The position numbers and the translations under genes are program-made. DNA of 61,002 nucleotides, filler included. It is 11 parts of 11 records of this genome, joined end to end, with 100 filler letters (N's around TTAATTAATTAA, not from the genome) between each part and the next. Parts side by side here need not be neighbours in the genome. Positions count along the whole stretch, not along the records: positions 12,702 to 16,006 come from SRR15195285_5577; 10 more parts are not named here. One strand, 5' to 3'. Under the pieces are notes generated by a model. The model was not told the DNA's origin. It worked only from the letters and a program-made list of their open reading frames with translations, and searched no databases. Of this stretch, positions 3,001 through 29,896 are shown piece by piece (position 1 is the first letter of the stretch; every line of letters begins with the position of its first letter).

Positions 3001-3273
3001 GATCTGCGCCTCGGCCGAGGAGCTCGTCCACACAAGTGGAGGCGCCATTTGCGGCACCAGAGTGCAGCGCAGTTGCGCCGCTGTTGTTTCTGAGATCTAG
3101 CTTCGCCCCTTGCTCCAGCAGCCAGCGCAACGCACCCAGGTGCTCCTTCGCGGCAGCCCAGTGCAGCGCACTGTTTCCCACCGCCCCGCAGCGGTGGTCC
3201 AGCAAGCCTTTCGAATGCCTTTCAACGAGCGCCTCCAGCATGCCGACATTCCCACTCTTTGCCGCGGCGACCC
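1..3273 (-). CDS. Ankyrin-repeat protein with long Ala/Glu-rich coiled coil (partial; frame runs open off the window edge)
   Basis: The minus frame reads GNSALHWAAAKEHLGALRWLLEQGAKLDLRNNSGATALHSGAANGASTCVDELLGLGADPEQADNTGRTAHDWA (about 2950-3190, ankyrin repeats), followed by about 800 aa of E/A/R-rich heptad-like sequence. The ORF track lists no stop-terminated ORF in this frame, consistent with it staying open to base 1. A likely acceptor cag lies at 3274-3276; the upstream exon is uncertain. Confidence 0.75.
278..720. repeat. Direct duplication of about 145 bp inside the coiled-coil CDS (copies at about 278-420 and 577-720)
   Basis: Both copies read tcctcgYgctgctgtttgcttc...gcacgcagccgttcttgYtcgtcttgattctcttgctgcagcttRgtgtgYctctcgaccatctcctcggtcgcYgcctgtRcct, with scattered substitutions. 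Confidence 0.9.
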
Positions 3274-3636
3274 CTGTCCAAGTCAATCGCAACCATCTTG
3301 AGCAGCGGCCACAGTAGCACGGGGTTCCAACACAAAGCGCAGGGGCGAAACCAGCCAGGCGCCCGAAACCAACAGCACACACACTGCTACACGGCACTAA
3401 CCGGCGCGCCCCTCCCACGCAGACGACTGGGCAGAGGAAGGATGCAGTGTATGGCAGCGAGCGGTGACGACGGTCGCGTGTTCTACATGGCGTGACAGAG
3501 ATCGTTTGCGCGGAGTGGGTACACGCCGACGACACCGCCTCGGACTGCGCCGCGCCGGCGAAGATCCGCGAAGGGTCGACCCGCCGAGTGCCGCCAGCCG
3601 CGCGTATGCTGCTGCTGCTGCTGCTGCTTCTGCTGC

Positions 3637-3736
3637 NNNNNNNNNNNNNNNNNNNNNNNNNNNNNNNNNNNNNNNNNNNNTTAATTAATTAANNNNNNNN
3701 NNNNNNNNNNNNNNNNNNNNNNNNNNNNNNNNNNNN
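3637..3736. other. Artificial contig spacer (N44-TTAATTAATTAA-N44); identical spacers at 12602-12701, 16007-16106, 20590-20689, 29595-29694, 33426-33525, 40867-40966, 48387-48486, 51722-51821 and 56049-56148
   Basis: Ten identical 100-nt blocks; TTAATTAATTAA puts stop codons in all six frames. Confidence 0.99.
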
Positions 3737-4543
3737 CCGTAGAGCCCACGCACGCGTTCTAGAGCGCTCTACAACGCGTGTGGGCTGTGCGCTGTTGTGC
3801 TACTGCACCACTCCACGTGCCTTGAACGGCCTGCCTGCTCCGTGGTTGTTGTCTGATTGTCGAAAGATAAGTGGTTGGTCATAGTACCTGCTGATGCCTG
3901 AAGCTGTCGATGGTATCACACCACCAGCAGCAGCTATGGTGGGGACTCGAAGCTAGGCAATTGGTGCCTTGTGCCCGAGCCACAGATAGAGCGCAAGGGT
4001 CAACGGTTGCTCGTACATTCAGAGCAAAGTGTGGCTGTTTCCGTGCAGTTGTGAATCAAGCACATTGCGTGTCATGCTCAAGGAGTTGGCGCTACTGACT
4101 AGTAAGTTTTCAGCTAACCGATAAGCGCCAAATAGTAGACATCGCAAAGTCTGTTTTGGCTGACAAAAACTGAAATTCATCCTGAATGCAAATGTTTTTC
4201 GGAACCCATGGAAATCATTATCGAGAAAGCATTTGCAATGTCACGTCTCCCGATAGATCTTGCGAACTCAAACACTTTCATTTCTGAGCGTCTAACTGCA
4301 TATTAAAAAAAGCAGGTGGAAATCTTGCCTGCATGCAAGCTAAATTTTCGGCACGGGCTCGTCTACGTCCCAGGACCACACATGTTCTTGTACCACTCTC
4401 AATTTCGCAGCCGTCGTTGCTCTTACCGTCGCTCGCTTTGTTGAATGCATGCAAGTCTCTGCCTGCGAGCCTATACATGTGCCATGCTTGAGCGAGCGCA
4501 GTCACAGTAGCTCGAAAACTTGCACGACCTACGGCAGCTCGAG

Positions 4544-7500
4544 CTATTGCTGGAACATAGGGTTGGCGACATGATTTCCACCTGCACCGGCAGCGTCGCT
4601 TTTGCGGAAGAAATGGTGCTTTTTCTCGGCAGTCACACTGCGGTGCTGCATCTTAACTCGATGCAATTGTGCAAACCCCTGTGCACTCGTCTTGCTCGTC
4701 CAACCACGCTTGCCGACTTTGAGCCGCAGTGTGCCGTCTCTCAGCACCTTAGTCTCAGTGACTTCGACTAGCTCACCAGCTTTGAGCTGGCCAGTCCTGC
4801 GTGAGCTGATTTCCGCCCCACCTTGCAACGGTGTGGCTTTAACCGTGCGGTAGTGGCCTGTGAACGCTTTTGGGTCCGACTTGATCTTCCCACTTTTGAT
4901 TTTCTGTGCGGTAGCGAAGGCAGCGAGTGGGTTGATCGAGGGTTCGGAAAGTGTTGTGGACGTCTCGGGATTCTTCATGGGTAAAGTCTCTCCAGTCCGA
5001 AGTTTCGCAAGTTGCGCTTGCTGATGCAGCTGTTCCGACAGAGACTTGCCTTTGGTCTTCTGCGACTTGGTCAGTTTCTGCTGCTCGTCGTTCGGACCCT
5101 TCCAGTGGAGGCCCAAGCTTTCAATTCTGGCCTTTTCATCCAGCTCTTCTTGTGTCATAGGGCGCATGTCTTCGCATAGTTCCACGGCATCAAAGTCAAA
5201 CATGTCCCATTCCCACTCATCCTGTGTGATTCGATCACCCAGGTCGAGGACTACTGACCCAAGGAGCCGTGGTGCCACGTACTCCTCGTCGGTTTTGTCC
5301 GCTGTAGCATCTAGAGCTGGGTCGCCCATGAATGCCTTGATAGAGATGCACTCGACCATTCCAGTGCCATCTGGATCAGCTGGGTCGGTAACGTCGAACA
5401 ACAGCGCTTGGCCGACGCCCTCGTTCCACGACGGGCCTTGAGAGTCTTCAGCTACGTCCATGAAAGTTGCACCAGCTGTCCGTTTTCTTTCTCTGTTCAC
5501 ACGCAGCTCGATAAATACTATTACCGCCCGTTCTTCTTCGTCAGCAACCTCGCCAATCGCCTCCAGAAGGAAGCGTTCAGACCAATCAATCTTCAGGATG
5601 TTGCAGCGTAGTCGTTCATCGTTACGGCGTATCTCTAGGTGTAGCTTGCCGATGCACGTCCCATTAACCATGTCCTGATCTGCCAGCTTAAAATGGCGCT
5701 TGCCGAATATACCGTGGTGATTGTAGCTGAACCATCCGTGAGGATCACCTTCCTGTTCACTTTGCTTATGCAAGCGCGCTACAGCCCCACCATTTTGAAA
5801 GATTACAGCCTGCGAGTTTACGGTCACCATCTGCCCGAAATCGATGCGTCCAACTGGCGGAGGTGGCTTCTCGCCCTTTGCAGGTTTCGCTCGGATCATG
5901 GCTTTGTGCATCGATACCCCGTCGACATCGATGCATTCGTACCGAGATCCGACTTTGCCCAGTTCGTATTTAAGTAAGTCAATGCGTACATGGTGAAGCT
6001 CTTCTGTGACTGTCACTACCAAGTCGTATCCCAGAGAGACCAACATGGGCGCATTTGCACCCAGCATGAACATGCCGATTATTGGCCGGGTTAAGTAAGC
6101 TTCACCTTCAAGATTGACGCGCAGCAGCAACGATACCATGTACGAAAAGACAATTAAGCTTTGACCCAGGCAAGCCAGTAAATTGCTGCGGCTGTGCGCG
6201 TAAGGCTCATATTCGAGCAAACATGACAAGACGAATGTAGAGATGAAAAGTCCGATGATGCTCTGAAGGATCGAACCACGGTCAATGAACGTCAGCATGC
6301 CGATCAGTGCAACTTTCTGGGCCATCAAATACACTTCCCACATGTAGCAGTCTGGCTTGTAATCTATGTACAGCGCCTCGTATTCGTGTGGCCCTTCATG
6401 CTTCATGATGGCATCTGCATGTTTACGCAGCACGCGTACCATACTGAGTGGAATGCCAAGTGGAATCATCAACATCAACGCCGAGCAGATGTATACGTGG
6501 CGTGAGTAAGACTCAGAGTGGCAAGACTCTGCAAAGTCTTCGAACATGTACTGCTGGTCGTAAATTCCCGTTTGGTAACACATGAAAAATCCAAACAACT
6601 TGTTCGTGATGCCTGGATATGCCAAAAATACAACGAACAGACAACGTGACACAGCAACTTGTTTAAGCGCAGCCTTCTTTTCCATTCGTTCATACCGTGC
6701 ACGAGCCTCGTGATCAGACATCTCTTCTTCGTTGTCATCTTCTAAACCGAGGAACGTGGCTCCCATGCTTTTCGCCAGTCTTTGCTCTTCTTTTTCGAGA
6801 TAATCTGCCCTCTCTTCCTCTGACATGTCGTTCACGTTTACTGCATCATGGCTTTCCACACCAGCGCGTGATTTCAACGGCCCATCTTTCCGATTCTGCT
6901 TGTGCTGCTTGGCTAGTTTTCCTTTCAGTTTCTCGTCTTGCTCCGGGTCGTGAACATGTCCCTGGTTTACAAGACCCAAGTCAACTACTTCTGCCTGCCG
7001 CACGTAAGTCACTGCAAAGTACACCACCATTAAGACAGGCAGCAAGAGCTGGAAGTACAGCTTGTGGTAATAGCTACTCGGTGCCAGACAACCAAGACCT
7101 GGCAGCTCAAAAATTTCAAAGCTGAGGTACTCTTTGAACGATGCAACGAAGTTCCGTACGATTTCGGGGAACTTGACATTCAATGTTACGCCCATTCCCA
7201 CCCAAATTTGGTAGACCTGTATCACAATTTTCACATCTTTCAGCATGGCTGGTAGAACTCGGTGAACGACTGTTACAATCTCACCCAGACGCGCGCTGTG
7301 TTTCAAAAATGGGATGAGATAGTAGAACCCGAAAAATATCGCAAACACAAACCCTGTCCCTTGCAACGCGAGCATAATGCCTGATTGGCACATTGTGCAG
7401 CCCAAACCTTTCTTCATGGCGAATCCGGGAGCGCAATATGCACATAGTGGACCATCGTATCCGACACCACAGCGCTCGAGACTGCTAGTGACATTCCTGT

Positions 7501-10500
7501 ACTCCAGCTCAGCATTGCACGATTCATCGAACCGGCATTTGAACACATTGCGTTCTCGGTTGACTTGATATGCAGGTTGCACCAGTGCAGACTCCCGTTC
7601 CGGAACTGCATCGTCCTGATCTATCAGGCTCATTTCAATGAATGTCCAATTTTGTGCAACGAATGGCTTCCCTTGATAATCCCACTGGGGGCCTGGACCC
7701 GCGCCACAATCCAGACAGTCAGGACACCTGATACATCGTTGCCGCATCAGAATTTCTTCGTAAGCGTTCTTGTTTTCCACAATTGTTTGTGGGGATCTCT
7801 CGCGGCCTTGTGGAAAGCACCAGATTGGATTGCCTCGGATTGCTTCTTTGTTAACACCGAGATACCAGGATTTAGGCGCGGAGTTCGGATCCACCATATC
7901 GCATCCTTTCGGGCAGTCCCCAGTGCCGTCTGTGTTTGCGTCCAAATCACATGTAGGAACGTCTGCAGTGCCAGTGCACGTGGTACCTTGCTTTGTGCAT
8001 CCCACAGTACACGTACCTGTGTCAGGGAAAAACTCGCAACGCGGCGTGTCTGCTGTCCCAGTGCACGTGGAGGAATCTGACATCAGCTTAGCACTGTCCT
8101 TTATGGTAGTAAAGAGGCTATAAACTTTCCCCACGCCGATAGGTTCTCCAACGTCTTGATAAATGATAGGTTGATCAGGCTCCCAGTATTCATCGGTTGC
8201 GTCGCGCCCACCGGAACTGGGGTCCTGAATGAGATCGTACTGCCCAGCCGGGCACATACAGTCAGAAGGCAGAATGCTTCCAGTTCCGTCAGCTGGTTTG
8301 GTGATCATTTCGTTCTCTCTGTCACATCGGATGCATGAAGCTCGAGCCTCATCGTAGCGGAAGCGCCCAATCTCACAGTTTACACATTCAGTCTGTGCTT
8401 GGTTCTGGTGCTTGCCAGGTGGGCAAAATGCACAGGCTCCATCGACCCCCGCACTACCTGTGTCGCATTGCATGCACCACTGTTTGTTCTCCGTTGGCAT
8501 GAACCCATCTGGGCAGTCAGTGCAAGTGCCATCCGACCCTGCCGATCCATCATGGCACGGATGGCACGGAAGCCCTTGGCCCAGAATCAGTTCCTGTCCT
8601 GGCGGACATAGCTTGCAGACTTGAGATACAATGTCGTAGTACTGAGATTGAGGGCATGGGATGCACTCGTCTGCGGTTGGATTAGGGGCTAGACCAATCG
8701 CACACTCTGCGCAGTTCCTGCCATCCGTCGATGCCGTACCTGGCTGGAAGGCGCAGCTGTCGCATCCTTGCTCTCGGTCGTTGTTTGGCTGTGAGCCAGG
8801 CAGGCAGCGATCACATATACCGGATGTCCGAGCGTACCCTACCCCACATAAGCACTCCGTACCACGCTCGTTCGGATAACTTTTAACCTCTTCTCCTGGC
8901 TGTGTGCAAACTACAGTCAGCACCACCGGGAACAATGACGGTGGAACTATTCGGTTATCATACTTGGTCATGATTAGCCATGGCCCCATCACAGGCATCG
9001 TGAGCTGAATGAAATACCCGTATTCTGGATCGTAGCTCGACGTAAACAGCAGCTCCACGTCACCTGTTACGCCATCGATCATTGTGTCGCTACGCCTGGT
9101 CACAGTGGCTGTGAAACTAAGTCCAAATTCGTGTATGTCGTTCCTGAACTTATCACGGGGCACCACACGCTGCTTGCCTGGCTCGCCAGCTGTTATCTCG
9201 CGCTCAAGAAAGTTTGTCGACATGGTCGGTTCAATTTCAGCTGGCACGACGAGAATTGAACATTCAATCACCCACTCTGTTGGTGCTAGATTGGAGAAAG
9301 TCAGAGGAGCACCAACAGGCTTCTCTGGCACAGGATCACTCCACCATGTTGTCACTGAAGCACCATAGATGGTGTTGAAAGCTGTATACTCACCAACCAA
9401 CATAGGAGCTGCAAACTTCACTTCTACCTGTGCTTGTTCTACCACCTCGAGCAGCCCGTTGGGTCGCCAGAACTGGTCATCTTTATCAATGTTGGAATAG
9501 AGGTACGTTTCTGCATCGTCCAGATTTCCCTTCTGTCGCAAGTACGCTTCGATTATCTTCCATTCTTTGAAAGGTACCCACTTGTTTGCATCCCAGAACC
9601 GCAAGCTCTTCAGAATTGCAAAGTGACTCTCGTCCACTGATGTGCCCAGCGCGCCATTATTTTCCCACCCGCCACACCGTGAAAAGCTAAACGGCGGGAG
9701 GCCCCCGACTGGTAATCCAACAAAGGCAGTACAATTGCTGATAGCCCACTGCGATGTGCTCCGCGGGTCAGTGTTGTAGACGGTGATGAACGTCGATTGT
9801 GACTCTCCGGCTGGCAAAGTCACCACTGGCAGAATGTCTGGGAACACCGTCACACGCACGCCTGATTGACCAACGGCAAATGACACTTCGAACAATGTCT
9901 CCCCGCTGCTAGAAATGATCGTGGCGTTCTGTCTGTTTATCCCAAACGTGGCAGAAGTACCGTACATGCGTAGCACGACCGTCAGATATTCCTCGGGCGC
10001 TATCGTCCAAGGAAACTCAATGTCCGACAGGACAGATGCCACGTCCTCGATGCCACTATCAACCACACGCTGCACCGCTAGCCATTCATCGACCTGGACG
10101 CGAAATATCGTTGCTGGTTGCCCACCAGTGTTTGTTACGAGCACTGGTGTATCAACGAACTCAGTCGATTCGCAAGCAGCCTCAACTACTGCAGGGTTGA
10201 TTGACAAACGTGCAGCAATTACATGAAGATGGACTAGACACTGCTCGGTCTTGTGAGAAGACACACCTACTATGGTGATATTCTGCTCACCTTCTGATAG
10301 CTGCATATCACACTCCGAGTCTGCACAAGTGCCGACTGCAGCACTTGCATCGGATACAGTTACAGACAAACCAGCACCACTAACAAATGTTGTGCCGTAC
10401 ATGCACAGGTCGTTGATGGAATTGAGCTGCAGTGTGGCTGCGCCTCGTGGGATGAACAGCTCGCTCAGTGTACAGCCCAATGCGACACAGGAATCGAAAC

Positions 10501-12601
10501 ACTGCCCTCCCCGACCAAGCTGGCCTACAGGGCATAGCTCGCAGCCATCTTGAGCAGGAAGAGGCTGCTTCCCTTCAGGGCAGCGCTCACACTTCGGCTG
10601 ACTGCTATCTCTGGCCCAGTTTGCTCCCAGATTACGGCATGGTTCGCATTCGGTGCCAGACAGACTGCTCATAGTACCAGGCTCACACAAATTGCAGACC
10701 CCATTTGTACTGTAATATCCATCTCGACAGAGGACGCATTCCTTCCTGTCAGAATCCGGTTCCCTGCCAGCTGGGCACGAAGAGCATCGAGTAGCCCCCA
10801 GCTCGGAATAGTAGGAGAGGTTCGATACAGCCCCCACACCCGGTAGCATCGAACAGTCCATACAGATTCCCGCGGAGCTGAATCTACCAACACTGCAGTC
10901 AACGCACGCACCACGGGACGCATCTGGCTCCTTCCCTGGTGCACAGACTTCGCAGCGAGCGCCACCGGGGCTAAATAGTGTCTCGCCAAGATCGGAGCAC
11001 GGCTCGCACCCAGTCAGGTCATCGTAGAGCTGCTGTCCTGGTGGACATGTGAATCTCAGCTCGTCCATGCCGCATGCGGCCCAATCTACAGAAGAGTACA
11101 ATGTGGAGTAAAGATCCATTGGGAAATCCTCTTGCACCTCCTGCCACAGCTCCACTTGGTCTTGTGGCAACCGGTCTTGTAAGGAGCACGGCACACAAAA
11201 CGAGCTACCGACTTGTGCGTTGGGTACAGACCGCAACGCCATATCCGGTTGTCCACTCGAACTTTCTGAGCGGACGCAAGGTCTACATCCTGTACCGTCT
11301 GGATTATGAGTAAACCGGCGGCAATCCACACACGTCGTGCGGTCCACTGTAGGCTCTTGTCCAGATGTACACTGAGTACATCTCCCTCCAGTTCCCGCCC
11401 ACCCAACTGGGCATGGAACCTGGTCGTCGCCGAGGGCAGTTGGCTGCATACCGTCATTGGCAACAATGCATGCAGTGTGGTCCAGCGTGTACGCAGTTGA
11501 ATTGCAATGCTCACATGCAAGTCCATCCCTGGAATGCTTCCCGGTTGCACATGATATACACTCGGTGCGTTCTGCATTGGGTTCCTTTGCAGCTGGACAC
11601 TTGGTGCACAGTCCTCCTACACCTCCGTATCCGTCTGCACATAAAACACATTCGCAGCCACTGCTAGCCGGCCGAAAGCCATCTGCGCACACTGAACACG
11701 AAACGCCACGACTAATTGCCCCAGCCGGGCAGGCCACACACTCACCACCACGAAAGCTGCCATCTGTGCCACATATGTGTGCTCCGCTGCCAGGATGGTA
11801 TCCGCAATCGCAGTTGAATTGGCACTGGTCTCCAACCACACCCTGGCAAAATGCTGACGAATTCTGAATTGTCAAACCATCTGTACAGCTGTTTGCAATG
11901 CACTGTCCGCCCTCGAAGCTGCGATCCACCGTACACACTCGTGGTCGCACCGGTGAGTAGCCGTGATCGCATTCAAACAAGCACTCGTCACCTGTACTGC
12001 CACTGCACACTGAAGGTGAGTAGTCCAACGTCAATCCTTCGATGCATAGCTGCGGGGTACAAAACGACTGAGCAGAAATTGAATCCTTCCCTTGGGGACA
12101 TTGTACACACGGAGTGGTAGGGTCAGAGTCCTCGTCGTACTGCCCTGCGCCACAGTCAACGCACCCAACTGAAGCACTCTCCCCTTGAAACTTGCCAGCA
12201 ACGCACGCGATGCAAGTTGTCTGCCCAGCGCTGTTTTGGAAAAAGCCAGGCGAGCATTCCTGACACTGCCACAGGGTGTCTCGGACAATATTGTGATCCT
12301 CGAAAGTGTTGGTATAGTCGTACGGATATGTATGGACAGATGAATACGCACGGCGAGTATAGTATCCATCAGGCTGAAAAGCAGACCGAATGGGGGTCGA
12401 CAATGCAGGCACGACAAATGCACTAGCAATGGACATAAGCGAACTGTAGAACCCAGCCGGGCAGTCTGAGCACTGTATGGACCCTGTCGCGTTTTGAAAC
12501 TGCCCAAACGGGCAGTCGATGCATGCAGGCTCAGCATCACGCCCGGTTAAGTTTGAGAATGTCCCAACAATACACTGGATGCAGTCTGTCTCTTCGTCAC
12601 T
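4544..12601 (-). CDS. Giant Cys-rich multi-pass membrane receptor-like protein (over 2630 aa, 5'-truncated): GCC2_GCC3/ephrin-receptor-like Cys repeats, sushi-like, Ig/filamin-like, about 7-8 TM, cytosolic SH3-like/C2-like/SH3-like
   Basis: One uninterrupted ORF that stays open to the contig end. It has dozens of CxxCxxG repeats, a filamin-like VVPRDKFRN and the pre-TM motif CGVGYDGPLCAYCAPGF. The TM block (about 6025-7380) includes LYIDYKPDCYMWEVYLMAQKVAL and YEPYAHSRSNLL, typical of protist Cys-rich multi-TM proteins. Confidence 0.85.
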   Translation of the reverse strand, partial: SDEETDCIQCIVGTFSNLTGRDAEPACIDCPFGQFQNATGSIQCSDCPAGFYSSLMSIASAFVVPALSTPIRSAFQPDGYYTRRAYSSVHTYPYDYTNTFEDHNIVRDTLWQCQECSPGFFQNSAGQTTCIACVAGKFQGESASVGCVDCGAGQYDEDSDPTTPCVQCPQGKDSISAQSFCTPQLCIEGLTLDYSPSVCSGSTGDECLFECDHGYSPVRPRVCTVDRSFEGGQCIANSCTDGLTIQNSSAFCQGVVGDQCQFNCDCGYHPGSGAHICGTDGSFRGGECVACPAGAISRGVSCSVCADGFRPASSGCECVLCADGYGGVGGLCTKCPAAKEPNAERTECISCATGKHSRDGLACEHCNSTAYTLDHTACIVANDGMQPTALGDDQVPCPVGWAGTGGRCTQCTSGQEPTVDRTTCVDCRRFTHNPDGTGCRPCVRSESSSGQPDMALRSVPNAQVGSSFCVPCSLQDRLPQDQVELWQEVQEDFPMDLYSTLYSSVDWAACGMDELRFTCPPGQQLYDDLTGCEPCSDLGETLFSPGGARCEVCAPGKEPDASRGACVDCSVGRFSSAGICMDCSMLPGVGAVSNLSYYSELGATRCSSCPAGREPDSDRKECVLCRDGYYSTNGVCNLCEPGTMSSLSGTECEPCRNLGANWARDSSQPKCERCPEGKQPLPAQDGCELCPVGQLGRGGQCFDSCVALGCTLSELFIPRGAATLQLNSINDLCMYGTTFVSGAGLSVTVSDASAAVGTCADSECDMQLSEGEQNITIVGVSSHKTEQCLVHLHVIAARLSINPAVVEAACESTEFVDTPVLVTNTGGQPATIFRVQVDEWLAVQRVVDSGIEDVASVLSDIEFPWTIAPEEYLTVVLRMYGTSATFGINRQNATIISSSGETLFEVSFAVGQSGVRVTVFPDILPVVTLPAGESQSTFITVYNTDPRSTSQWAISNCTAFVGLPVGGLPPFSFSRCGGWENNGALGTSVDESHFAILKSLRFWDANKWVPFKEWKIIEAYLRQKGNLDDAETYLYSNIDKDDQFWRPNGLLEVVEQAQVEVKFAAPMLVGEYTAFNTIYGASVTTWWSDPVPEKPVGAPLTFSNLAPTEWVIECSILVVPAEIEPTMSTNFLEREITAGEPGKQRVVPRDKFRNDIHEFGLSFTATVTRRSDTMIDGVTGDVELLFTSSYDPEYGYFIQLTMPVMGPWLIMTKYDNRIVPPSLFPVVLTVVCTQPGEEVKSYPNERGTECLCGVGYARTSGICDRCLPGSQPNNDREQGCDSCAFQPGTASTDGRNCAECAIGLAPNPTADECIPCPQSQYYDIVSQVCKLCPPGQELILGQGLPCHPCHDGSAGSDGTCTDCPDGFMPTENKQWCMQCDTGSAGVDGACAFCPPGKHQNQAQTECVNCEIGRFRYDEARASCIRCDRENEMITKPADGTGSILPSDCMCPAGQYDLIQDPSSGGRDATDEYWEPDQPIIYQDVGEPIGVGKVYSLFTTIKDSAKLMSDSSTCTGTADTPRCEFFPDTGTCTVGCTKQGTTCTGTADVPTCDLDANTDGTGDCPKGCDMVDPNSAPKSWYLGVNKEAIRGNPIWCFPQGRERSPQTIVENKNAYEEILMRQRCIRCPDCLDCGAGPGPQWDYQGKPFVAQNWTFIEMSLIDQDDAVPERESALVQPAYQVNRERNVFKCRFDESCNAELEYRNVTSSLERCGVGYDGPLCAYCAPGFAMKKGLGCTMCQSGIMLALQGTGFVFAIFFGFYYLIPFLKHSARLGEIVTVVHRVLPAMLKDVKIVIQVYQIWVGMGVTLNVKFPEIVRNFVASFKEYLSFEIFELPGLGCLAPSSYYHKLYFQLLLPVLMVVYFAVTYVRQAEVVDLGLVNQGHVHDPEQDEKLKGKLAKQHKQNRKDGPLKSRAGVESHDAVNVNDMSEEERADYLEKEEQRLAKSMGATFLGLEDDNEEEMSDHEARARYERMEKKAALKQVAVSRCLFVVFLAYPGITNKLFGFFMCYQTGIYDQQYMFEDFAESCHSESYSRHVYICSALMLMIPLGIPLSMVRVLRKHADAIMKHEGPHEYEALYIDYKPDCYMWEVYLMAQKVALIGMLTFIDRGSILQSIIGLFISTFVLSCLLEYEPYAHSRSNLLACLGQSLIVFSYMVSLLLRVNLEGEAYLTRPIIGMFMLGANAPMLVSLGYDLVVTVTEELHHVRIDLLKYELGKVGSRYECIDVDGVSMHKAMIRAKPAKGEKPPPPVGRIDFGQMVTVNSQAVIFQNGGAVARLHKQSEQEGDPHGWFSYNHHGIFGKRHFKLADQDMVNGTCIGKLHLEIRRNDERLRCNILKIDWSERFLLEAIGEVADEEERAVIVFIELRVNRERKRTAGATFMDVAEDSQGPSWNEGVGQALLFDVTDPADPDGTGMVECISIKAFMGDPALDATADKTDEEYVAPRLLGSVVLDLGDRITQDEWEWDMFDFDAVELCEDMRPMTQEELDEKARIESLGLHWKGPNDEQQKLTKSQKTKGKSLSEQLHQQAQLAKLRTGETLPMKNPETSTTLSEPSINPLAAFATAQKIKSGKIKSDPKAFTGHYRTVKATPLQGGAEISSRRTGQLKAGELVEVTETKVLRDGTLRLKVGKRGWTSKTSAQGFAQLHRVKMQHRSVTAEKKHHFFRKSDAAGAGGNHVANPMFQQ

Positions 12602-13141
12602 NNNNNNNNNNNNNNNNNNNNNNNNNNNNNNNNNNNNNNNNNNNNTTAATTAATTAANNNNNNNNNNNNNNNNNNNNNNNNNNNNNNNNNNNNNNNNNNN
12701 NACTCGATTTTCGCTGGACCCCTCTCCAATAGCAATACTCGAGGTGAACAGGTCTGGACCGTGCTGAAACGGGGAAGCCAACGCCCTCCTGACCTACAGG
12801 AGGCGTCGCGCGGGCACGGGGTGGTGGCAGTGGCAGCGTGAGTGGGGGGGAGCGGCAGCGGGGGTGGCTGGGACAGCGGCAGAGGCAGCGGCAGAGGCAG
12901 CGGCAGAGGCGCAGGCCTAGGTAGGTGCAGACTGAACTGGCTGAACTGACCAGGCCAGCTCGCTCCACGCCTGCAGGCGCGCGTGGCCAGTTGTGTCCGG
13001 CAGGACGAGTCCACGTTTAGGATCTCCTGTGCTCACAGGCTCCGCGTCTGTTAAACCCACCTGCGCTGCTGGTGCTCGTGGCATCTATCCAGTGAGCAGC
13101 ACCCTTGGTCTAAGGAGTTCGTCACGCAGGGAGCACTGGCG

Positions 13142-15121
13142 ATGGATCATCGGACCGAGAATCTTCACTTTGCACAAGAGCCTCTCGCTGCTGCTTTCGC
13201 ACTCGCGAAGGAGAAGTTGGCTCAGCATCGAAGTGACGAAGCCACTGATGCAGACCTCAGTACAGTGATTGATTTGCTCTCTTGCGAAAATCAGGCGACA
13301 CAAAGACTAGCTGTCACTACATTGGGTTGCTTCGCTACCGCTTCCGAGGCGCACGTGGCCGAAATGGTGCGGCTCGGAGCCCCAGCGGCTCTGTGGGAGG
13401 TTTACAAGCAAACGCTGCATCCATCTAAAGACGACGAAGCGGCCCGTCAAGCAACGAAATTGATGCTCGCAGAAACGATGCGTGACATGATGAGGACGTC
13501 CGAAGCACGAGGGGCGGTGGGTACTCTAGAGGGCTACAGCATGCTGCGAGCTGACATAGCGTCGGAGCCGCTGGTAGATGCTGATGTGGATGCAGCCTTA
13601 AGAATTATGCGCAAAACTTCGTGGGAGAATCAAGAGATGTTCATTGATGCAAATCTAGTAGCGCCATTGTTAAATGTGATCAAGGAGATCGGACCAACCG
13701 AACTGCGGGTGAGTGCGACAATCGTCGTAGCCAACTTATTCGAAGGTTCTCTTGCGGTTACGAAAGCCGCTGTTGAGGCTGGAGGACTAGAAATGATGAT
13801 CGCAGAGCTGGCTAACACCAGCTTGGATGCGGAGCTGGCGGCTGAAATGACACGGACCATCGAGAAAGTGACGCATCATGCCGAATTTGCGAAACGGCTT
13901 GTCGATGCGGGTGTCTGCGCATGGTTGCTGCCGACAATGTATTGTGCTGAGCCTGGCCGGTGCTTTACTGCTGCGTGCATCGTGGCGAACCTTCACCAAG
14001 ATCGCGCTGTGATTGATCAGATTCACGAAACTGGGTGCTTGGAAGATATTGAGAAGGTTGCTCGCACTCTTTACCCTGGTGCTCTGACAGAGCGATTCAA
14101 GGAAGAGTGCCCACAAAGGCCTGAATTTGAGGTTCTCAGGACTCTCATCTCAAGCGACCTGCCTTTGCCGGTGCGTCTGGTTGCAGCGATATGTTTGTGT
14201 GGGTACAGTGTACACGCCGGGGAGGATTCCGATGATTCAAGACAGGTTGTACGGATATACGAAGATCCAGAAATCATTCAGAGTCTCCGTGTGCTCGCAG
14301 CATCGACAGATGGCCACATCTATCTTCACTCCATCTTTGCTCTTCGAAATCTTGGGTTACCTGAGCCATATTTCAAGAAAAGCAATGGTTCTGAAACAGC
14401 GTCGACGCTTCCAGCAGAAGTGGCCGAGTGGAGCACAGATGACGTCTGCACATGGGTTGGGCAGCAAGAATTTAGCATGTATCGCAAGCAGTTCCGCAGC
14501 GGTCTCGTCAATGGAGCCGTGCTTATCAAGCTGGACACCGAACACCTGGAGGAAATGGGAATTTCTCGACGCGTGCACCGCACCGTCATTCTCACGGGCA
14601 TCGAACTCCTCAGCTCACGCATACAGTCTGAAGGAACAGCAGAAGGCACACTCGTAGAAGGTGTGCCTCCAGCAATGCGAAGTAAGCAGGCACTGCAAGT
14701 CGATGTATTCATTTCTTACCGTCGCAAAGGTGGTTCTCAGCTCGCGCAGCTCATCAAAGTTTTCCTTAAGCTGCGGGGCTATGCAGTTTTCTTGGACGTG
14801 GACAACCTCGGGCGGGGTGAATTCGACACAGCCCTAGAAGCCAACCTCAACGCTGCTCGGAATGTGGTTGTTTTGCTTACAGACGGTTGCTTAGACCGTT
14901 GCATTGAGGACACCGAAAACCAAGATTTCGTGCGACGCGAAATTGCCACCGCCTTGGCGAAGAAGAAGAATGTGGTGCCCGTTACAGCAGCTTTTACATG
15001 GCCAGACACTGAGAGACTTCCTCATGACATAAGAGAGCTCTGCCGCCAAAATGCAGTGGATTGGAGTCACCAATACCAGGATGCTAGTATCGAAAAGCTA
15101 TGCGCTTTTCTGCACAAATGA
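13142..15121 (+). CDS. SARM1: SARM1-like NAD+ hydrolase (ARM repeats - one SAM - TIR), 659 aa, intronless
   Basis: The TIR [42 protein letters not shown]...CLDRC...[11 protein letters not shown]...KNVVPV...FTWPD...LPHD...[17 protein letters not shown] parallels the animal SARM1 TIR almost residue for residue ([22 protein letters not shown]...DWVHKEIVTAL...WSHEYQEATIEKI). The SAM reads [13 protein letters not shown]...F..Y...F....VNG..L..L. ARM segments AWLLP, ACIVANL and IQSLRVL...ALRNLG match the SARM1 ARM. Confidence 0.92.
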   Translation: [659 protein letters not shown]

Positions 15122-15973
15122 CCCATCGTGCAGCGTGATTGTTGCTGCATGCAAAGCATTCAGGACTGCCGTCGGATCTGGCAAAACAGAAAGAGCAACT
15201 CATCAAGCACATACGAGCCAATCGGGATTTTCCATGTTGCTTCGTGAACGCCACATTGGATGAATGAATGTGAATTGATATATTGTAATCTCTCTACCCG
15301 AGGTCGATCTCAGGTCACGAGCCATGCTGGAATATGAGCCAGGCTTTGAACGTCGACTGAAAATGAAACCCTAACCTCGACCACTTCACGAGATCAGGCA
15401 CCACCAGCGCGCACCCCGCATACGCACCGCGGCGCAGCGCGCCGCCGGCCCCACGCGCGGGTGCCTGCGCGCCGGGCCTGCGCATCCTGGTGCCGTGGTG
15501 ACTGGACGATTTGTCGAATTTGACAGGCCAAGCTACAAATGTAGGAACTTCCTACTCTCTACATGTACTACTGTAGTACCTAGGTAGATTACTAGCTAGA
15601 CAGGAATTCCTACAGCCGGTGTACACAGAATCGCAATCGGGTACCAACTACTAATTACAGTTATTATAGGTGCTGGATCCTGTCAAAGGCGACATGCACG
15701 CTTGGCGCCATGGGGACCGTGGGCTGGACAGGGCCTACAGCTTGCTTAGGGTTTGTGGTCCACGGGGGAGTTTTGGCGACTGCCTAGCTTCGCTAGCAGT
15801 GTAGGCCAGCGGCGGCTCGCCTAGGCGAGCTGCAAGGGCAGGCACTTACTTTGCTTATCCCTCACTCAGAAAGAAATTGTTGTTGACTCGTGACAACGAC
15901 ACCGTGGCAATGTAGGTTCAATTAGACCAATTGCATTATATGCATATATTACATAATCACTTTTTCTTTTTCT

Positions 15974-16006
15974 TCTTCCCCTTCCCCTTCCCCTTCCCCT
16001 TTCCCC
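15974..16006. repeat. (CTTCCC)n microsatellite at contig end
   Basis: Tandem ttcccc units run into the spacer. Confidence 0.85.
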
Positions 16007-16106: not shown

Positions 16107-17306
16107 CCAGATGATGGTCGAACACCCGAAGATCGCTCAAATTTCGTTCACTGGCTCCGCTGCGACCGGCAAGAAGATCATGGCAACTGGTGCCGCGACC
16201 CTCAAGAAGGTCACTCTCGAGCTCGGCGGGAACGATCCAGCCGTTGTGCTACCCGATGTTGATCCCAAGGATGCTGCACCCAAGATATTCCAGGGCGCGA
16301 TGTTCAACACTGGTCAGGTTTGCGTTGCGATCAAGCGTGTCTTCGTGCACGAGTCCAAGTAGGTGCTCCATAGAAGAAACGAGATCGTGCATGCCGGACA
16401 GATATTGCTCACAACCCCTGGTTCTGTTGGCAGGTACGAGGCGATGGTCGATGCTATGAAGGATGAAGCTGCCAAGGCAAAGACTGTGATGAACGATGGG
16501 CTCGACAAAGACACTCAATACGGACCTATCAACAATCGGATGCAGCTCGCTCGCGTAAGAGCCAGCCCTTCCTGTCTTTGCTATGTCAGCCTTGAGCTGC
16601 GGTTCTGTAGTGAGTCGAGCTGCATTAACTGTCGTGTGTGACAGGTTGAGGAACTCGTTGAGGACGCAAAGGCCTCCGGCGCCCGCGTGGTTGCTGGCGG
16701 CAACCGCTTCAACCCTAACGGAAAGGACGGGTTTTTCTACGAGCCAACGATTCTGGCCGATGTGCAGGAAGGCGTCCGCATCGTTGACGAGGAGCAGGTG
16801 AGTCAACTGAAGCCAGTTCGCCTTCTGCCTGTTCCGCCTTTCCTATCCGTAGTGATTCTGTTCCTTGCGACTGTAACATCTTACTGTGACCTGCCGTCCA
16901 GTTCGGGCCGGTTATGCCGCTCATTAAGTACACAGACGTCGAGTGAGTCCCTTTCACTGAAAACTGCCTTGCTTCCCATGCATACTGCCCCCCAATGACA
17001 CTGCTGATCACTCAAGCCGTGGTGGGCATTGGTTCTGCCAGGGACGCGATGGAGCGCGCCAACGCCACAGACTTCGGTCTCGGAGGGTCCGTTTGGACCA
17101 ACGACCTGGAGAAGGGCGCAGAGCTTGCGGCGCGAATCCAGGCTGGTGTCCGCGGCGTGAACGCTCACCCCGGCGGCGGCCCGGGGACCCCGTTCGGTGG
17201 CGTCAAGCAGTCTGGCATTGGTCGCGAGGGAGGCGGCACGATCGGCTTGAAAGAGTTCGTGGATGTCACCACGTTGCGCATTGCGAAGACCGGCCTCGCC
17301 AAGTAG
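16107..17306 (+). CDS. Aldehyde dehydrogenase (5'-partial), with introns 16359-16433, 16555-16644, 16798-16901 and 16943-17041
   Basis: Motifs FTGSAATGK, LELGGNDP (catalytic Glu), GQVCVA (catalytic Cys), EEQ|FGPV and PFGGVKQSGIGREGG. Removing four GT-AG introns gives one continuous frame. Confidence 0.95.
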
Positions 17307-20273: not shown

Positions 20274-21332
20274 CCCACGTGCCTAGACACGTGCGCAGGT
20301 GGTGCAGCGACCGCGCACTGCCGTGCGGGCGGGTCCACGCGCGCGCACCGCGCCGCCGCCGCGGTCGGCGGGAAGCGTCGCACGCCGCACGCGCGCGCGC
20401 GACGCGCGGCGCGGCGCGGCCGTGCGGCGTTTGTCGTGCGTAATCGTTGAGAGCCCAGGTCAGGATTGAATCCACAGGCGGAACCACCATCGAGGAGGGC
20501 GTTTGCGCGTTTCCCTGAACGGCATCTGCGGCACCGCCCGGTTGGCCACTGATAAAGTAAGCAGACTCCGCGGACCGCCCCGAGACACTNNNNNNNNNNN
20601 NNNNNNNNNNNNNNNNNNNNNNNNNNNNNNNNNTTAATTAATTAANNNNNNNNNNNNNNNNNNNNNNNNNNNNNNNNNNNNNNNNNNNNGACAGGGTAGC
20701 GTGCAGGGAAGAGTAACAGTAGTCCCCCCAGCCTATGGCTGACAGCAGGGACGGGATGACGCCGACTAGATGATAGGACCCACAGAAGGAGACGCCCCCC
20801 CGCGCCCAACAATATAATGTTACACCGTGGTAGTGGGGGATTGGGCTTGACTCTTTTGTCCTTATTTCAGTACTGAGTGCTAAATACATCTTAAATGTCA
20901 ATGTCAATGTCAATGTCACACGTCGGCCGCCAGTCTCGGAATTCCCTATTCCCATCCATGAGCAAATGAGCATGTTCCTCGTCGGGTAGCGCTCATGGTA
21001 GCGCTGGCTCCAGGCCAAACGAATCAATTCGTGACGGACGCGGGAGTCGAAGATCCTCAGGAACGAGGAAGCCTTGATGGTCACAGCTCACGAACAGAAG
21101 AGCTCAGTTCCTCTCGATGCCTGAGTGTACCCCGTACGGGGCGTGAGTGGACAGCCGGGAGGCCTGTGGCGTGACCTTTGGTGCTACGCCGCCGTCTAGC
21201 CATCTGGGATGCACTGCCCAGCCACTGCCTAGGGCACCTATCCGTATATATCGTCTGCACAGCACGCTGCGTCCTCTGCGGCGCGCTAGTGTGCGTCGCC
21301 GCCCGGCCAGGGCGGTTGGCCTGGTGCCAGGG

Positions 21333-22052
21333 ATGGTGCAGGTGGAGGTCAACTGTGCGGTGTGGGTGAAGCAGGGCTCGTCGCGCTACTGGCCCTGCGT
21401 CTCCCGGGCGCTGGACGATGTGGGTGAGGACTCGCTGCGCCGAGAGCTGCAGAACCAGATTCGCAAGATACAGGCGAAGCACCCGGACCGCGTTGCCACT
21501 GGCCCGTCACCGACAATGGTGCTCGTCGAGTTCTTGGGGTCCCACGATTATGCTTGGGCTCAGATCCACAAGATCGAGCGGTTTCGTGGCGGGAAGGACG
21601 CACCAGACGGCCCGACAGTGTCCACCGACGAGTACCACGAGGCGGTCAATCGTCTCACAGGCTATAGCGGCGCCGTGAAAGAGGCGGAGGAATTCTGCAG
21701 GGAGCAACGCGAGGTGGAGCGGGTGGCGAAGAAGCCTCGGGCACGGAACGACAGCTCCAGCCAGGTCTCCAGAAGCAAGGAGAAGAAGAGCGACGATCGA
21801 AAGCGACAGCGCACGGACGAGAAGAAGAGGGAGAAAGCCAAGCCAGCAGCAAACGCTGCTGAGGTCAAGGAGATCGCCGCACTCAACCAGGCTCTTGCGA
21901 GGCAGATTAAAGCTGCGGAGAAGCAGCAGTCAGCTGCCGCCGGTGCGAGCGGCCGCAGTCGCCGGGCTTCCACTGCAGCTAGCTCGCGCGCAACGTCGCA
22001 GGCGGAGATGACGTGGGTGCTACAGCAAAAAATCAAGGAGGGCAAAGGGTAG
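21333..22052 (+). CDS. PWWP-domain protein with basic C-terminal tail
   Basis: VWVKQGSSRYWPC...VLVEFLGSHDYAW...I..F...Y..AV.EA matches the PWWP pattern; a K/R-rich NLS-like tail follows. The first ATG in the ORF is at 21333. Confidence 0.8.
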   Translation: MVQVEVNCAVWVKQGSSRYWPCVSRALDDVGEDSLRRELQNQIRKIQAKHPDRVATGPSPTMVLVEFLGSHDYAWAQIHKIERFRGGKDAPDGPTVSTDEYHEAVNRLTGYSGAVKEAEEFCREQREVERVAKKPRARNDSSSQVSRSKEKKSDDRKRQRTDEKKREKAKPAANAAEVKEIAALNQALARQIKAAEKQQSAAAGASGRSRRASTAASSRATSQAEMTWVLQQKIKEGKG

Positions 22053-22154
22053 AGCGTCTGACAGAGGGTAGCAGCGACTTTCGTATCAATCTGATCTGTC
22101 ATCAATCAGTACACTCGTGCCGGTCAGCTTACCAGCTGGTCTGTAGCGTGTCCA

Positions 22155-25100
22155 CTAGCGCGTCCACTCAACAGCGCAGTACTCGGTGGCGGACCGCTCT
22201 TGGTGGAGCCAAGTTGCGGACTCATCTAGCCACTCAAACTTGTGGTACTTCGCTATGTGGACGAAGGTCTGTAGAAGCTCAACGAACGACTGCCGACTGT
22301 CGCGTGGTCGGTATTCGCCGGAGCATGCGCAGCCTGCAGCCGTGAGCAACACGCGAGAAAGCATCCAGTCGCACGCACGTCGTGTCAATTGCTGGTCATT
22401 CAGACGCGACAAGCTCTGCAGGTCGGGACTCACGTGGCTGTAGATTCTCCGACGCGCCCTTGACATTCTTGCACTTTACACACACCAAGTCCGTCATCGA
22501 ATGTCCAACCGCGCGCCGTTGCAAGTAGCTGCGATACAAGAATTCGTTGCATTAGTCAGCCATCCGGTCAGCAGCGATTGGTTTGTTGCGGTGAGAAGCT
22601 GTCGAGCAAGTCTGAACTTGACACCAATGCACTCACGCAACGAGCTCTGACTCGATAGCATCTTTGCTGTACGGCGCCGTGCATTCCGGGCATAGCCACT
22701 CCTCTTCCGCATCGAGGTTCACGATGTCCGGCTCCCGCATCAGATCCAAATCGCGGCTGCAGAACAGATAGCCAGTTTAGACAAAGACCAGCACACAGGT
22801 CGAAGCATCGGATACTGACATGACCTACCTGAACTGGCATGACGTGCATATGACATCCGGGAGCGTGAAACCACGGCAAGGCGCGTGGAACTGCGACTCC
22901 GGCGCAAATTCCTTGACCTTCAGTAGTCGCAGCAACGTGCGGCGCATCGCTGCCACCTGCAGAACAAGCAAGACACAAATGCGAGCGCAGAGGTTACGTC
23001 AGCCGAACGTGCAGAATCGATCTGAGCAAATGGACACAGTGTGTGATCAAACAGGCTCAGGTTCATCAGGTACCTCTTTTTGAGCATCGTGGTCAAGACC
23101 AAAGACGTGTGAGACTGTCTTTACGAAATCAAGTGCGACGCGCCCAGAGCCTGGCACATCTCCCAAACCTGGTGGGCGCCGCTGCTTGCCTGCTGCCTCA
23201 TCCTCCTCCGCTTCCGCCTGGGCTAGCTCAGCGCCTGCCGCGCCGTCGTATTTGCGCTCAATATGATCCACCATCAAGCATAGTCGCCGTGTAAGCGATG
23301 TTTTCACCGCCTTTCCAAGCGCTTCTGCTACTGCATCGGCCTGCGATGATGCGTTGCCCGGCTCTTGACTGCAAATTCGAGCAGCTTCCAATGCACGTGC
23401 AGTTTGTACCGGCACCTGAATGAACTCCGCGACCACACGATGAAAGAATGTCTGCTGTTCGGTTGGAAGGTATTTGGCCACGTTGAAGTTGATCTCCACG
23501 CGGTCCTGCTCAACCTCTTGTGCAGCGCCGGCGTTGTGCTCAGGTGACGAACCTCCAGTTAGCATCGCGTGAGCATCATCCTCATCCATCGGTGCTGAGA
23601 CGTCGTCGTCTGCATCCATGGCATCAACGTCGTCAATCTCCTGCGGCATGGAATCTGCAGCGTCGTCGGCATCGACCTGTAGCCGAATGCCACCATAGTT
23701 CGCGCGGTCCTTGTAGAGCAGGCACCGCCACCAGCCACGTGGGATGAAGCTGACCCGATTGAACAACTGGTTTTCCCCGGTCTGGATTGTGTGGATCAGA
23801 TAATCGAGGTACTGCTGAGCAGTTGCGACATTATCTTTTCCTGTGCAAAGGATCACCTTGTTGAAGCAAGCAGACACTATTGTGGCACCTAGCGACCGAA
23901 GCTCCGCCATCAGTTGCAAGAACACCTTTTCGATCATATTGCGAACCGTCTGAAACAACCTTGGGTCGTACAGTTTCGAAGTTGGGCTGCGAAGCCAACG
24001 ATAAAAGTTCATCAACATTTCATCTGCTTGGGCACTGCCTGCCTGGGCCTGCTTGTACCAACGCTCGACCATAGTCTTCAGCACGCGGAATGCTGGGATT
24101 GTTGCGGATGCATCGTCAGCGTCATCAACCTCACCAGCTTCTCCGAACGTTGCCGCGCCTTCGATGTCATCCACAAGGTCAGCATTAAGCACAGTATTGA
24201 CTGCAAGGCCGAACAGGTCCAACTCGACACAAATGCTGCGGTACGAGCCTTCGACGTTTTTGACTGGGTCTGCAAAGGCAGTGATCCCTGTGTCTTCCTC
24301 GTTGCCACCGAGGTCCGGCAATGCCGCTGTGGAGTACCAAACACAGAAGTTCTGACTAGTCAATGAGCGGCCAAAGGCAACATCAGCAATGAAAGCTCTG
24401 CTGTCACCCTCGATGTTTCCGATGGGAATGCGGGCAAAGCGAGCCAGGTCAGTCTGGTCATCCCACCATTCATCCACCTCTAGCGACCGCTGCATCATTC
24501 GGCGGACGGTCGGAGTCTCCCACCCGAGTTGAGGGTATACGTCGTCACTCGCTATGGAAGGAATGCAAACAGCCGGCATATCAGCGAGGGCTGGAATGGT
24601 CGACAAGTGAGTTTGCAGTGTTTCTGACGACTGGAGCAGCAGCACCGTTGCCGCCGTTTTGTCCTTTTGCAGCCGTGCAAGCTCACGCTGCATCGCTTTT
24701 TGCGCCACTCCCAGAACGGAAGCGTAGGTCAAGTCGACCTCGAAGCCCTCTGGCATCCCAAGCTCACGCACTAGGCGGCGGGTGTTGACGCGATCGACGT
24801 TGCCCGCCTGTCGGCTGACAACGAACACCCAAGCCTTACGCTCGACCGCGTCAAAAAGGCCGAGGACGGCACGGTCTCTGCCACTGTGGCTATGGTACAT
24901 CCAGACGCGCCGCAGCTTGATCTGATCAGGTCGAAGATACGAGGCATCTGCATGTTCCACTTGCTCCAGAGTGAAGGCACCAGTCGCGTCTGGTTTCGCG
25001 TTCTTTACGAGTTTGCAGACGCTGCCAAGTTTCATAATCGCCTTGAAGATTTGTGGTGTTTGAGCTTCATACACACCCTCCACAGCGGAGTCACTCATCA

Positions 25101-29319: not shown

Positions 29320-29896
29320 CCCGTCTGCAGCGCCGGCCGAGCTCGCCCTAGCCGATCCAGCCCGAGCACCCCCGCGCCGTGCGGCGGCGTCGGCGCCAGG
29401 CTGGGTTGCAGCCGCCGCAGCGGAGGGCGGGGCGGCAGCAGCCCGCGAGGCGCTGCAACAAAGAGGTAGCTGGTGTGTCTGTGTTTGCGCGGTTTGCGGT
29501 TTGAATGACCCGGCCTGAATTCAAGATTCATCGTCATAGACTTGCATTGATTCAGTATGATTCGTGATATTTATACCACTATGAGTACGAACTTNNNNNN
29601 NNNNNNNNNNNNNNNNNNNNNNNNNNNNNNNNNNNNNNTTAATTAATTAANNNNNNNNNNNNNNNNNNNNNNNNNNNNNNNNNNNNNNNNNNNNTCCGGC
29701 TACTACTAACACACAATTGCACACACGTACCCGCGGACTGGATCACTTGAGATTGAGCGAATCCACGACCACTGGCCATGCTGAGTTAATCTCTTATCAA
29801 AAGTATCAGTGTACTCTCGCTCGGCCGTGCGCTGCCCGGCCCTTCGCCCGCCTTGCTCCTGCTACTGCTCCATTTCACTTCATCTAATGCTGGATT

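Follow-up and report, generated by a model that had tools for sequence, protein, structure and literature searches.

An ARM-SAM-TIR gene on a single-gene contig

The window, that is, the whole stretch of 61,002 nucleotides analyzed here, consists of 11 contigs joined end to end, which are separated by spacers of 44 N, TTAATTAATTAA and a further 44 N. One of these contigs (SRR15195285_5577, window positions 12702-16006; 3,305 bp, with N spacers on both sides) carries a gene for a protein with ARM repeats, a SAM domain and a TIR domain, the architecture of the animal NADase SARM1. The coding sequence (CDS) is located on the plus strand at 13142..15121, lacks introns and comprises 659 codons from an ATG start to a TGA stop. 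The open reading frame (ORF) contains no internal stop, and 31 codons before its ATG lies a stop in the same frame. The gene is real and intact, as an earlier interpretation made from the letters alone (the sequence-only reading) had described it. It is the sole gene on its contig; no other long ORF there has a family match.

The domains follow each other in the order ARM - SAM - TIR on one polypeptide. An ARM-repeat region, presumed to be regulatory, was delimited by sequence and model (13214..14371, plus strand; residues ~25-410). It is followed by a single SAM domain (14426..14611, plus strand; residues 429-490), a short flexible linker (14636..14692, plus strand; residues 499-517, 19 aa) and a TIR domain of the SARM1 subtype (14693..15118, plus strand; residues 518-659). 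Pfam reports one SAM_1 stretch (E 4.8e-10) and TIR_2 at residues 522-653 (E 1e-9), in agreement with the ARM, one SAM and TIR proposed earlier, while the Pfam Arm match to the 659-aa protein is weak (E 0.13). The N-terminus reads as acidic, unlike a mitochondrial targeting peptide, and the protein would be cytosolic.

The protein matches SARM1 over its ARM, SAM and TIR regions

Human SARM1 chains gave the best sequence match among all solved structures (HMMER, E 2.7e-56). The alignment to human SARM1 falls into two stretches, one covering ARM and SAM (residues 139-478, E 4.6e-13) and one covering SAM and TIR (residues 434-657, E 5.9e-40). On these sequence scores, the match lies far beyond chance. 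An AlphaFold model built on 42 relatives had a mean predicted local distance difference test score (pLDDT) of 81 and a predicted template modelling score (pTM) of 0.72, and low confidence was confined to residues 1-9, 28-35, 109-153, 159-161, 415-422 and 501-515. The top two Foldseek matches of this model were C. elegans TIR-1 (E 2.3e-20) and human SARM1 (E 1.4e-19). Full-length comparison by VIA-align yielded Z 31.1 for human SARM1 (513 residues aligned, root-mean-square deviation (rmsd) 7.0) and Z 28.9 for TIR-1 (531 aligned).

The sequence-only reading had claimed that the similarity to SARM1 extends across the ARM region, and this holds. Residues 1-415 alone matched human SARM1 with E 5e-7, and the alignment was collinear over 268 residues (139-406 versus human 132-399). 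In this ARM-only search SARM1 was the top match among natural proteins, followed by importin-alpha as the next natural family (E 2e-3); only designed consensus ARM proteins outscored it. The motifs AWLLP, IQSLRVL and ALRNLG were located where stated, at residues 260-264, 379-385 and 400-405, and face aEWLFP, IQSLKRL and ALRLLG of human SARM1 (7ld0_A) in the HMMER alignment. The ARM region of the AlphaFold model is all-helical, although residues 109-153 are of low confidence. The ARM of Drosophila SARM1 (7lcy_A) aligned with the model over 310 residues (Z 25.4, rmsd 4.8; VIA-align). The ARM of ZYG11B was close behind (Z 22.6), and the ARM fold alone is not SARM1-specific. The ARM-only search, together with the full-length and single-domain structural matches, leads us to regard all three domains as homologous to those of SARM1, judged by sequence and predicted structure.

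Animal SARM1 has an allosteric pocket for nicotinamide mononucleotide (NMN) and NAD+, which we take to comprise W103, R110, E149, Q150, R157, H190 and K193. The pocket was compared by pairwise alignment to human SARM1 and in a 42-sequence alignment, neither of which aligns this stretch in a trustworthy way. When located via the Bos sequence in the 42-sequence alignment, the pocket residues were mostly kept in six animal-clade sequences.

The TIR domain carries the putative catalytic glutamate

The TIR of human SARM1 (6o0q_A) superposes on that of the model with a TM score of 0.94 and an rmsd of 1.2 A (140 residues aligned, 46-48% identity, Z 25.4). In the HMMER alignment, FVRREI (residues 596-601) faces WVHKEI of human SARM1, which places Glu600 (codon GAA, 14939-14941, plus strand) opposite the Glu of this motif, the catalytic E642. 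This correspondence, proposed in the sequence-only reading, is found both in the codon and in the alignment. The partner of Glu600 is index 615 of chain 7ld0_A, which equals E642 on the assumption that residue 28 is the first of the chain; this inferred offset was checked with E149, Q150, R157, H190 and K193, each of which proved to be the expected residue. All 13 close relatives in alignment A2 keep both Glu600 and the DVFxSYRR box unchanged.

Two loops of the TIR were compared with the motifs described for the SARM1 group. The BB-loop motif DNLGRG (14801..14818, plus strand; residues 554-559) faces human EKLEAG and is identical to it at 2 of 6 positions (L and the last G), with Asn in place of K/R; the consensus of the 13 relatives is ENLGxG. 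For the SARM1 group a BB loop of E(R/K)LEAG has been reported, positions 1, 2 and 6 of which matter for catalysis, along with an EE loop of H(D/E)YQ (PMC7075850). The EE-loop motif SHQYQ (15065..15079, plus strand; residues 642-646) faces human SHEYQ, and its HQYQ matches the reported motif at 3 of 4 positions. Since Glu600 and the DVFxSYRR box are invariant in all 13 relatives and the modelled TIR is nearly superposable on an active NADase, Glu-dependent NAD+ cleavage is the most likely function as predicted from sequence and model.

A single SAM domain is predicted to self-associate

Between the SAM helices and the TIR lie only 19 low-confidence residues (pLDDT <50 at 501-515), so that there is no room for a second SAM. 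Pfam assigned two SAM_2 stretches to every animal-clade protein tested (3 of 3) and a single stretch to every non-animal relative tested (7 of 7). In animal SARM1, the tandem SAM pair builds the octamer. Four copies of residues 418-500 were predicted to associate head to tail, with a score of 0.51 compared to 0.00 for the best control. The runs agreed in at least 100% of contacts, and the partner pLDDT was at least 82. The mark used for this prediction was calibrated on two copies; 21 of 30 solved homodimers attain it, compared to 0 of 23 single chains. Solved SAM polymers remembered by the predictor may account for this pass.

The TIR groups with single-SAM relatives outside the animal clade

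An exhaustive search of 1.8 billion representatives yielded 7,849 proteins at E <= 1e-3 and 118 at E <= 1e-30. The closest database protein among these representatives is 59% identical overall, and the closest TIR 74%. The fourteen best matches after the protein itself are metagenome proteins (200-329 bits), ranking above the mammalian Bos mutus (180 bits) and the molluscan Nucella lapillus (164 bits). In a word-index protein search, the whole protein retrieved only itself among 8,000 candidates, and the TIR region alone retrieved 7 proteins.

Two TIR trees were calculated. The first (FastTree, 138 TIRs from the best 150 cluster representatives) contained three groups: 24 TIR-only sequences, a group of 44 rows (support 85-86) and a group of 67 rows (support 95). 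The window's protein is in the 44-row group, together with most ARM-SAM-TIR proteins with short SAM-TIR spacing; the 67-row group contains Bos and Nucella and has SAM-TIR spacings of ~100 residues. The second tree (IQ-TREE) was built from 80 TIRs, among them 16 named bacterial and 10 TIR-only rows, and its deep forks are weak at 144 columns. All 54 SAM- or ARM-linked TIRs were found on one side (SH-aLRT 90), with the 26 bacterial and TIR-only rows outside, and the SAM/ARM-linked eukaryotic TIRs are nested among bacterial TIRs. When TIRs of bacteria are included, as the sequence-only reading had envisaged, the protein still groups with SAM-linked eukaryotic TIRs and outside the animal clade: it lies in a 24-row single-SAM clade (SH-aLRT 95), whereas 23 animal-type rows with Bos and Nucella form another (SH-aLRT 89). 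Within the single-SAM clade, which has deep internal branches, the protein and relative P0002 form a branch of their own, outside a suspected chlorophyte subclade.

Two clusters of the protein Atlas were auto-named Armadillo/SAM/TIR (scores 0.94 and 0.93), with Chlorophyta as the commonest known phylum (13 of 57 and 11 of 59 known). The single-SAM clade probably includes these Chlorophyta-type clusters. In the loci L025, L006 and L007, the relatives are distributed over different reading frames with intervening gaps of ~78-113 nt, which can be read as short introns; the window's gene itself is intronless. A search of prokaryotes, with one genome per species, turned up 109 stretches whose TIRs are related to residues 474-659. 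The 78 listed prokaryote loci are 34-49% identical to the window's TIR and stem from Planctomycetaceae, Nitrospina, Clostridia, Pseudomonas and others. No listed prokaryote match starts before residue 474, leaving the ARM region with no bacterial counterpart among them. No relative of the ARM-SAM-TIR protein was found among IMG/VR viral contigs, and an origin from giant viruses is unsupported by these contigs.

Two further metagenome loci carry TIR-encoding relatives. Locus L008 (8111-12584) holds three TIR stretches, 32-45% identical to the window's TIR, within 4.5 kb of a 29-kb contig. On the 13.7-kb contig L003 (75% G+C), an ARM-SAM-TIR relative lies beside a 2,736-aa ORF on the other strand (2692-13475).

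One SAM instead of two, a separate TIR clade, a changed BB loop and, within a poorly aligned stretch, pocket residues without recognizable conservation indicate that the protein is not a strict SARM1 orthologue, as far as sequence comparison can tell. The sequence-only reading had called it a true orthologue, and in this respect it went too far. We consider the protein a probable member of a single-SAM branch that lies outside animals within the eukaryotic SARM1-type family, distinct from animal SARM1.

DNA polymerase epsilon points to a picozoan host

The host organism was placed with the gene of DNA polymerase epsilon (POLE; 23047-29319, minus strand, on contig 20690-29594), which is intronless and encodes 2,090 aa. 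Two metagenome proteins are 96% and 89% identical to POLE. For most of the named animals, fungi and plants in a list of 120 sequences the identity is 57-59% (48-56% in a few rows). In a tree of 43 POLE sequences, the window's POLE was positioned on a long stem outside the animal and fungal side (support 98), together with plants and others; two of its neighbors belong to clusters labelled Nemacystus (a brown alga) and Symbiodinium. The 90%-identity cluster of the nearest POLE relative contains the window's POLE itself (100% over 2,089 aa) and also a EukProt protein of 155 aa that bears the label Picomonas judraskeda and shares 96.5% identity with the window's POLE over 141 aa. Based on the tree position and the Picomonas-labelled cluster member, the window's organism is identified at sequence level as a picozoan close to Picomonas and not an animal. 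The non-animal unicellular host suggested by the sequence-only reading is thereby narrowed to a lineage outside Opisthokonta. Picozoa are heterotrophic, plastid-lacking marine picoeukaryotes that have been placed with red algae and are known almost exclusively from single-cell genomes; these assemblies can carry contamination, in one case heavily by a cryptophyte (PMC8599508). POLE and its two closest metagenome relatives lack PF23250 and PF22912, which most named listed POLEs carry, and the C-terminal module of POLE may be divergent in this lineage.

Membership of the ARM-SAM-TIR contig in the same genome was analyzed by composition. Its composition-normalized tetranucleotide signature correlated with that of the pooled rest of the window with r = 0.75. 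Leave-one-out values of the other ten contigs were 0.72-0.90, and those of the three others below 3.8 kb 0.72-0.77. Among 51 control metagenome loci of equal length the median was 0.41, and 1 of 51 reached 0.70. The only control matching the window's signature was L007 (r 0.80), which encodes a SAM-TIR relative of 35% identity with one short intron (1608-2650). This gene may be a picozoan paralogue.

Occurrence and natural variation

Parts of the contig were present in 19 listed public runs. All of these stem from environmental metagenomes, chiefly of marine or seawater origin, and not one contains half of the contig's words; seawater runs with a small share, and contig parts uncovered in four runs, carry no weight for habitat or absence. 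Pieces of the CDS were recovered at 97-100% identity in three DNA metagenomes. In one metatranscriptome run, three CDS pieces of 248, 170 and 151 nt were found with 1, 0 and 0 differences, respectively. The gene is probably expressed. A natural variant from run X2 spans 1,148 nt and has 31 differences, 19 of which lie at third codon positions. Because synonymous differences (21) outnumber amino-acid replacements (10) and third positions are in excess, the CDS shows the signature of purifying selection.

Other features of the window

The 5' flank of the gene contains a simple repeat of the GGCAGC/GGCAGA type (12813..12923), which was recognized by sequence and metagenome contig depth. Numerous unrelated metagenome contigs whose ends are loose add up to a summed depth of as much as 339 in this bin. 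As these contigs pile up in that bin alone, the element is a common low-complexity repeat and lies outside the gene. The contig ends in a (CCCCTT)n-like run (15960-16006).

The other contigs contain long, mostly uninterrupted ORFs. One ORF (4544-12436, minus strand) encodes 2,630 aa without interruption and is rich in Cys repeats, with one Ephrin_rec_like match (E 3.9e-7); in translation, the C-terminal half looks hydrophobic and membrane-like. A 1,000-aa ORF at 41911-44913 (plus strand) combines teneurin-type EGF repeats with a CD36 domain, and a 906-aa PIF1-like helicase (49053-51773, plus strand) has an N-terminal extension of ~390 residues without family match. An aldehyde dehydrogenase is split at 16111-17306 (plus strand): one ORF covers Pfam profile positions 200-280, and another, in a different frame and at a distance of 635 nt, covers positions 377-460. 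Since this profile is divided between two frames, the host genome probably has introns, despite the intronless ARM-SAM-TIR gene, POLE and other long ORFs.

Proposed mechanism and alternatives

Taken as a whole, we think it probable, if by no means assured, that the gene encodes a picozoan ARM-SAM-TIR protein of the non-animal single-SAM branch that works by a SARM1-like mechanism, as extrapolated from homology. In this mechanism, the SAM domain would assemble the protein head to tail into an oligomer. By analogy with SARM1, the ARM domain would keep the TIRs apart and inactive until a ligand or partner is sensed. The signal is probably not perceived via the pocket residues that animals use for NMN. 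Once released, the TIRs would pair and cleave NAD+ via Glu600 to nicotinamide and ADP-ribose (ADPR) and/or cyclic ADPR (cADPR). The outcome could be a collapse of NAD+ by which the cell kills itself when stressed or infected, or else a signal carried by a nucleotide. The activity of the enzyme, its autoinhibition, the size of the oligomer, the trigger and the role in the cell are all proposed here by analogy. We know of no in vivo function shown for any protist SARM1-like protein.

Several observations weigh against this reading. The protein has one SAM domain versus the tandem pair of animal SARM1. Position 2 of the BB loop, said to matter for SARM1 catalysis, is changed. The pocket residues face gaps or unlike residues in the protein and 16 relatives, in a stretch that is badly aligned and has pLDDT <50. 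The label "animal" of the second TIR clade is based on Bos mutus, Nucella lapillus and the solved human, worm and fly proteins, with tandem SAMs in 3 of 3. Contigs from RNA libraries may derive from DNA. The gene is alone on a 3.3-kb contig of a fragmented assembly, and its codon usage is an outlier among 12 ORFs: G+C content at third codon positions (GC3) is 0.52 compared to 0.58-0.72 in ten others, and the relative synonymous codon usage correlates at 0.24-0.49 with ten ORFs and reaches 0.67 only with the 2,630-aa Cys-rich ORF (GC3 0.54). The contig of that ORF fits the window by tetranucleotides (r 0.83). Shared genome membership, on which the sequence-only reading depended, was favored by tetranucleotides and disfavored by codon usage. 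This conflict stands; we give more weight to the tetranucleotides because they have controls. The contig quite likely belongs to the picozoan genome, and the link of this single-gene contig to it is good, not proven.

A gene that sits in a picozoan genome may still have arrived there by transfer from another eukaryote, e.g. a green alga, instead of by vertical descent. A codon usage unlike the rest of the window would fit such a transfer, as would the patchy distribution among eukaryotes and the nesting of eukaryotic TIRs among bacterial ones. The separate branch formed by the protein and P0002, which is not nested in the suspected chlorophyte subclade, and the deep internal branches of the single-SAM clade argue against transfer, and a donor is not identifiable among relatives nearly all of which have no taxon label. 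Transfer is in our view possible but not probable; if it occurred, the gene says little about the age of SARM1.

The TIR might also generate a cADPR-type messenger for a downstream effector and not kill by NAD+ depletion. Signalling by cADPR-type products is a feature of Thoeris and plant TIRs and, as work from 2026 reports, of many TIRs of eukaryotes. TIRs that make cADPR, mostly without NAD+ depletion, have been described from a choanoflagellate, an amoebozoan, a cryptophyte and an oomycete (bioRxiv 10.64898/2026.04.20.719644), cADPR has been reported as the main product of invertebrate SARM1 (PMC13455253), and the BB loop of the window's protein is unlike that of vertebrate SARM1. SARM1 and TIR-1, the closest characterized relatives, can however deplete NAD+, and the gene is alone on its contig, so that no partner or effector gene lies beside it. 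A pure messenger role seems rather unlikely.

It is less likely still that the contig derives from another small eukaryote, such as prey, a co-sorted cell or a plankter, in which case the protein would be unchanged and only the host wrong. Outlying codon usage, a single gene on the contig, the contamination known from picozoan single-cell assemblies and Chlorophyta as the commonest known phylum of the Atlas ARM/SAM/TIR clusters speak for such an origin. Against it, the tetranucleotides are as close as those of other short contigs, a closeness found in 1 of 51 controls, and the contig of the Cys-rich ORF combines a like codon usage (r 0.67) with a good fit to the window. With the closest database protein at 59%, a known alga or animal is excluded as source, and the protein lies outside the animal clade. 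A non-enzymatic scaffold or adaptor, in which TIR, SAM and ARM serve assembly only, is very improbable: the Asn at the BB-loop equivalent of K597 and reports that a conserved Glu is not always paired with activity (PMC7075850) would allow it, but Glu600 and the DVFxSYRR box are invariant among the close relatives and the TIR nearly coincides with that of an active NADase.

Returning to a picozoan, SARM1-like protein, a more far-reaching scenario can be outlined, which we consider unlikely to hold in all its parts. A single-SAM ARM-SAM-TIR protein would have been present in an early eukaryote ancestral to animals and to the plant, red-algal and picozoan sides, and the tandem SAM would be a later duplication. 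In free-living protists the protein would serve as a switch, gated by a ligand, that destroys NAD+ to kill the cell or to raise an alarm upon infection, and axon death would be the re-use of a protist immune executioner. Picozoans take up virus-sized particles.

Comparison with known systems

The protein shares the TIR fold and the catalytic Glu with bacterial TIR NADases (Thoeris ThsB, TIR-SAVED and others), but unlike with SARM1, the listed matches to these do not extend into the ARM region. Models of defence families match weakly: the match to PADLOC TIR-SAVED spans 81 residues (E 5.9e-12), and NCBIfam ThcB4 scored 31.9 bits versus a cut-off of 220. A bacterial anti-phage TIR effector was rejected, as the models are partial or below cut-off, operon context is lacking and the single-gene contig looks eukaryotic.

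With animal SARM1 (human SARM1, dSarm, TIR-1) the protein has in common the order ARM - SAM - TIR, the catalytic Glu, an EE loop of the form SH(E/Q)YQ, a TIR 46-48% identical at 1.2 A and a SAM predicted to self-associate. It differs from animal SARM1 in its one SAM, its separate TIR clade, the BB loop DNLGRG and, going by alignments that are poor in this stretch, a pocket without recognizable conservation. Unlike animal SARM1, it is encoded by an intronless gene in a protist.

SARM1-like proteins are already known outside animals, and the claim of the sequence-only reading that such a system would be undescribed there was overstated. In 2018, Richter et al. described SARM1 homologues of choanoflagellates that retain the catalytic Glu (PMC6040629). 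Like the window's protein, these are described as SARM1-like proteins of non-animal, unicellular organisms with the Glu kept. They belong to Holozoa, the sister group side of animals, where vertical inheritance is unproblematic, whereas the lineage of the window's protein lies on the plant and red-algal side of the tree; the two are set apart here by description. Two papers of 2026 added SARM1-like TIRs of amoebae, green algae, dinoflagellates and oomycetes (PMC13142454, PMC13455253); the latter includes a SARM1-TIR tree in which oomycetes, choanoflagellates, green algae and prokaryotes form clades (PMC13455253, Fig. 7B). The architecture of the algal, dinoflagellate, amoeba and oomycete proteins probably matches that of the window's protein. 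Picozoa are not named among the lineages in the available text of either paper, supplementary taxon lists aside. No paper on Picozoa with a TIR domain was found in a literature search that covered publications outside the supplementary taxon tables of such surveys.

The gene adds one protist lineage to a family already reported outside animals; as a system it is of a kind already known. Provided that the host has been assigned correctly, Picozoa possess the SARM1-type architecture in full and not a SARM1-like TIR alone. The 44 of 138 TIRs in the FastTree group and the relatives from aquatic metagenomes indicate a sizeable non-animal branch of the family. In comparison with animal SARM1, this branch should be useful for dating the origin of ARM-gated TIR NADases, for asking if the tandem SAM is an animal innovation and for approaching the ligand that the ARM domain bound before NMN.

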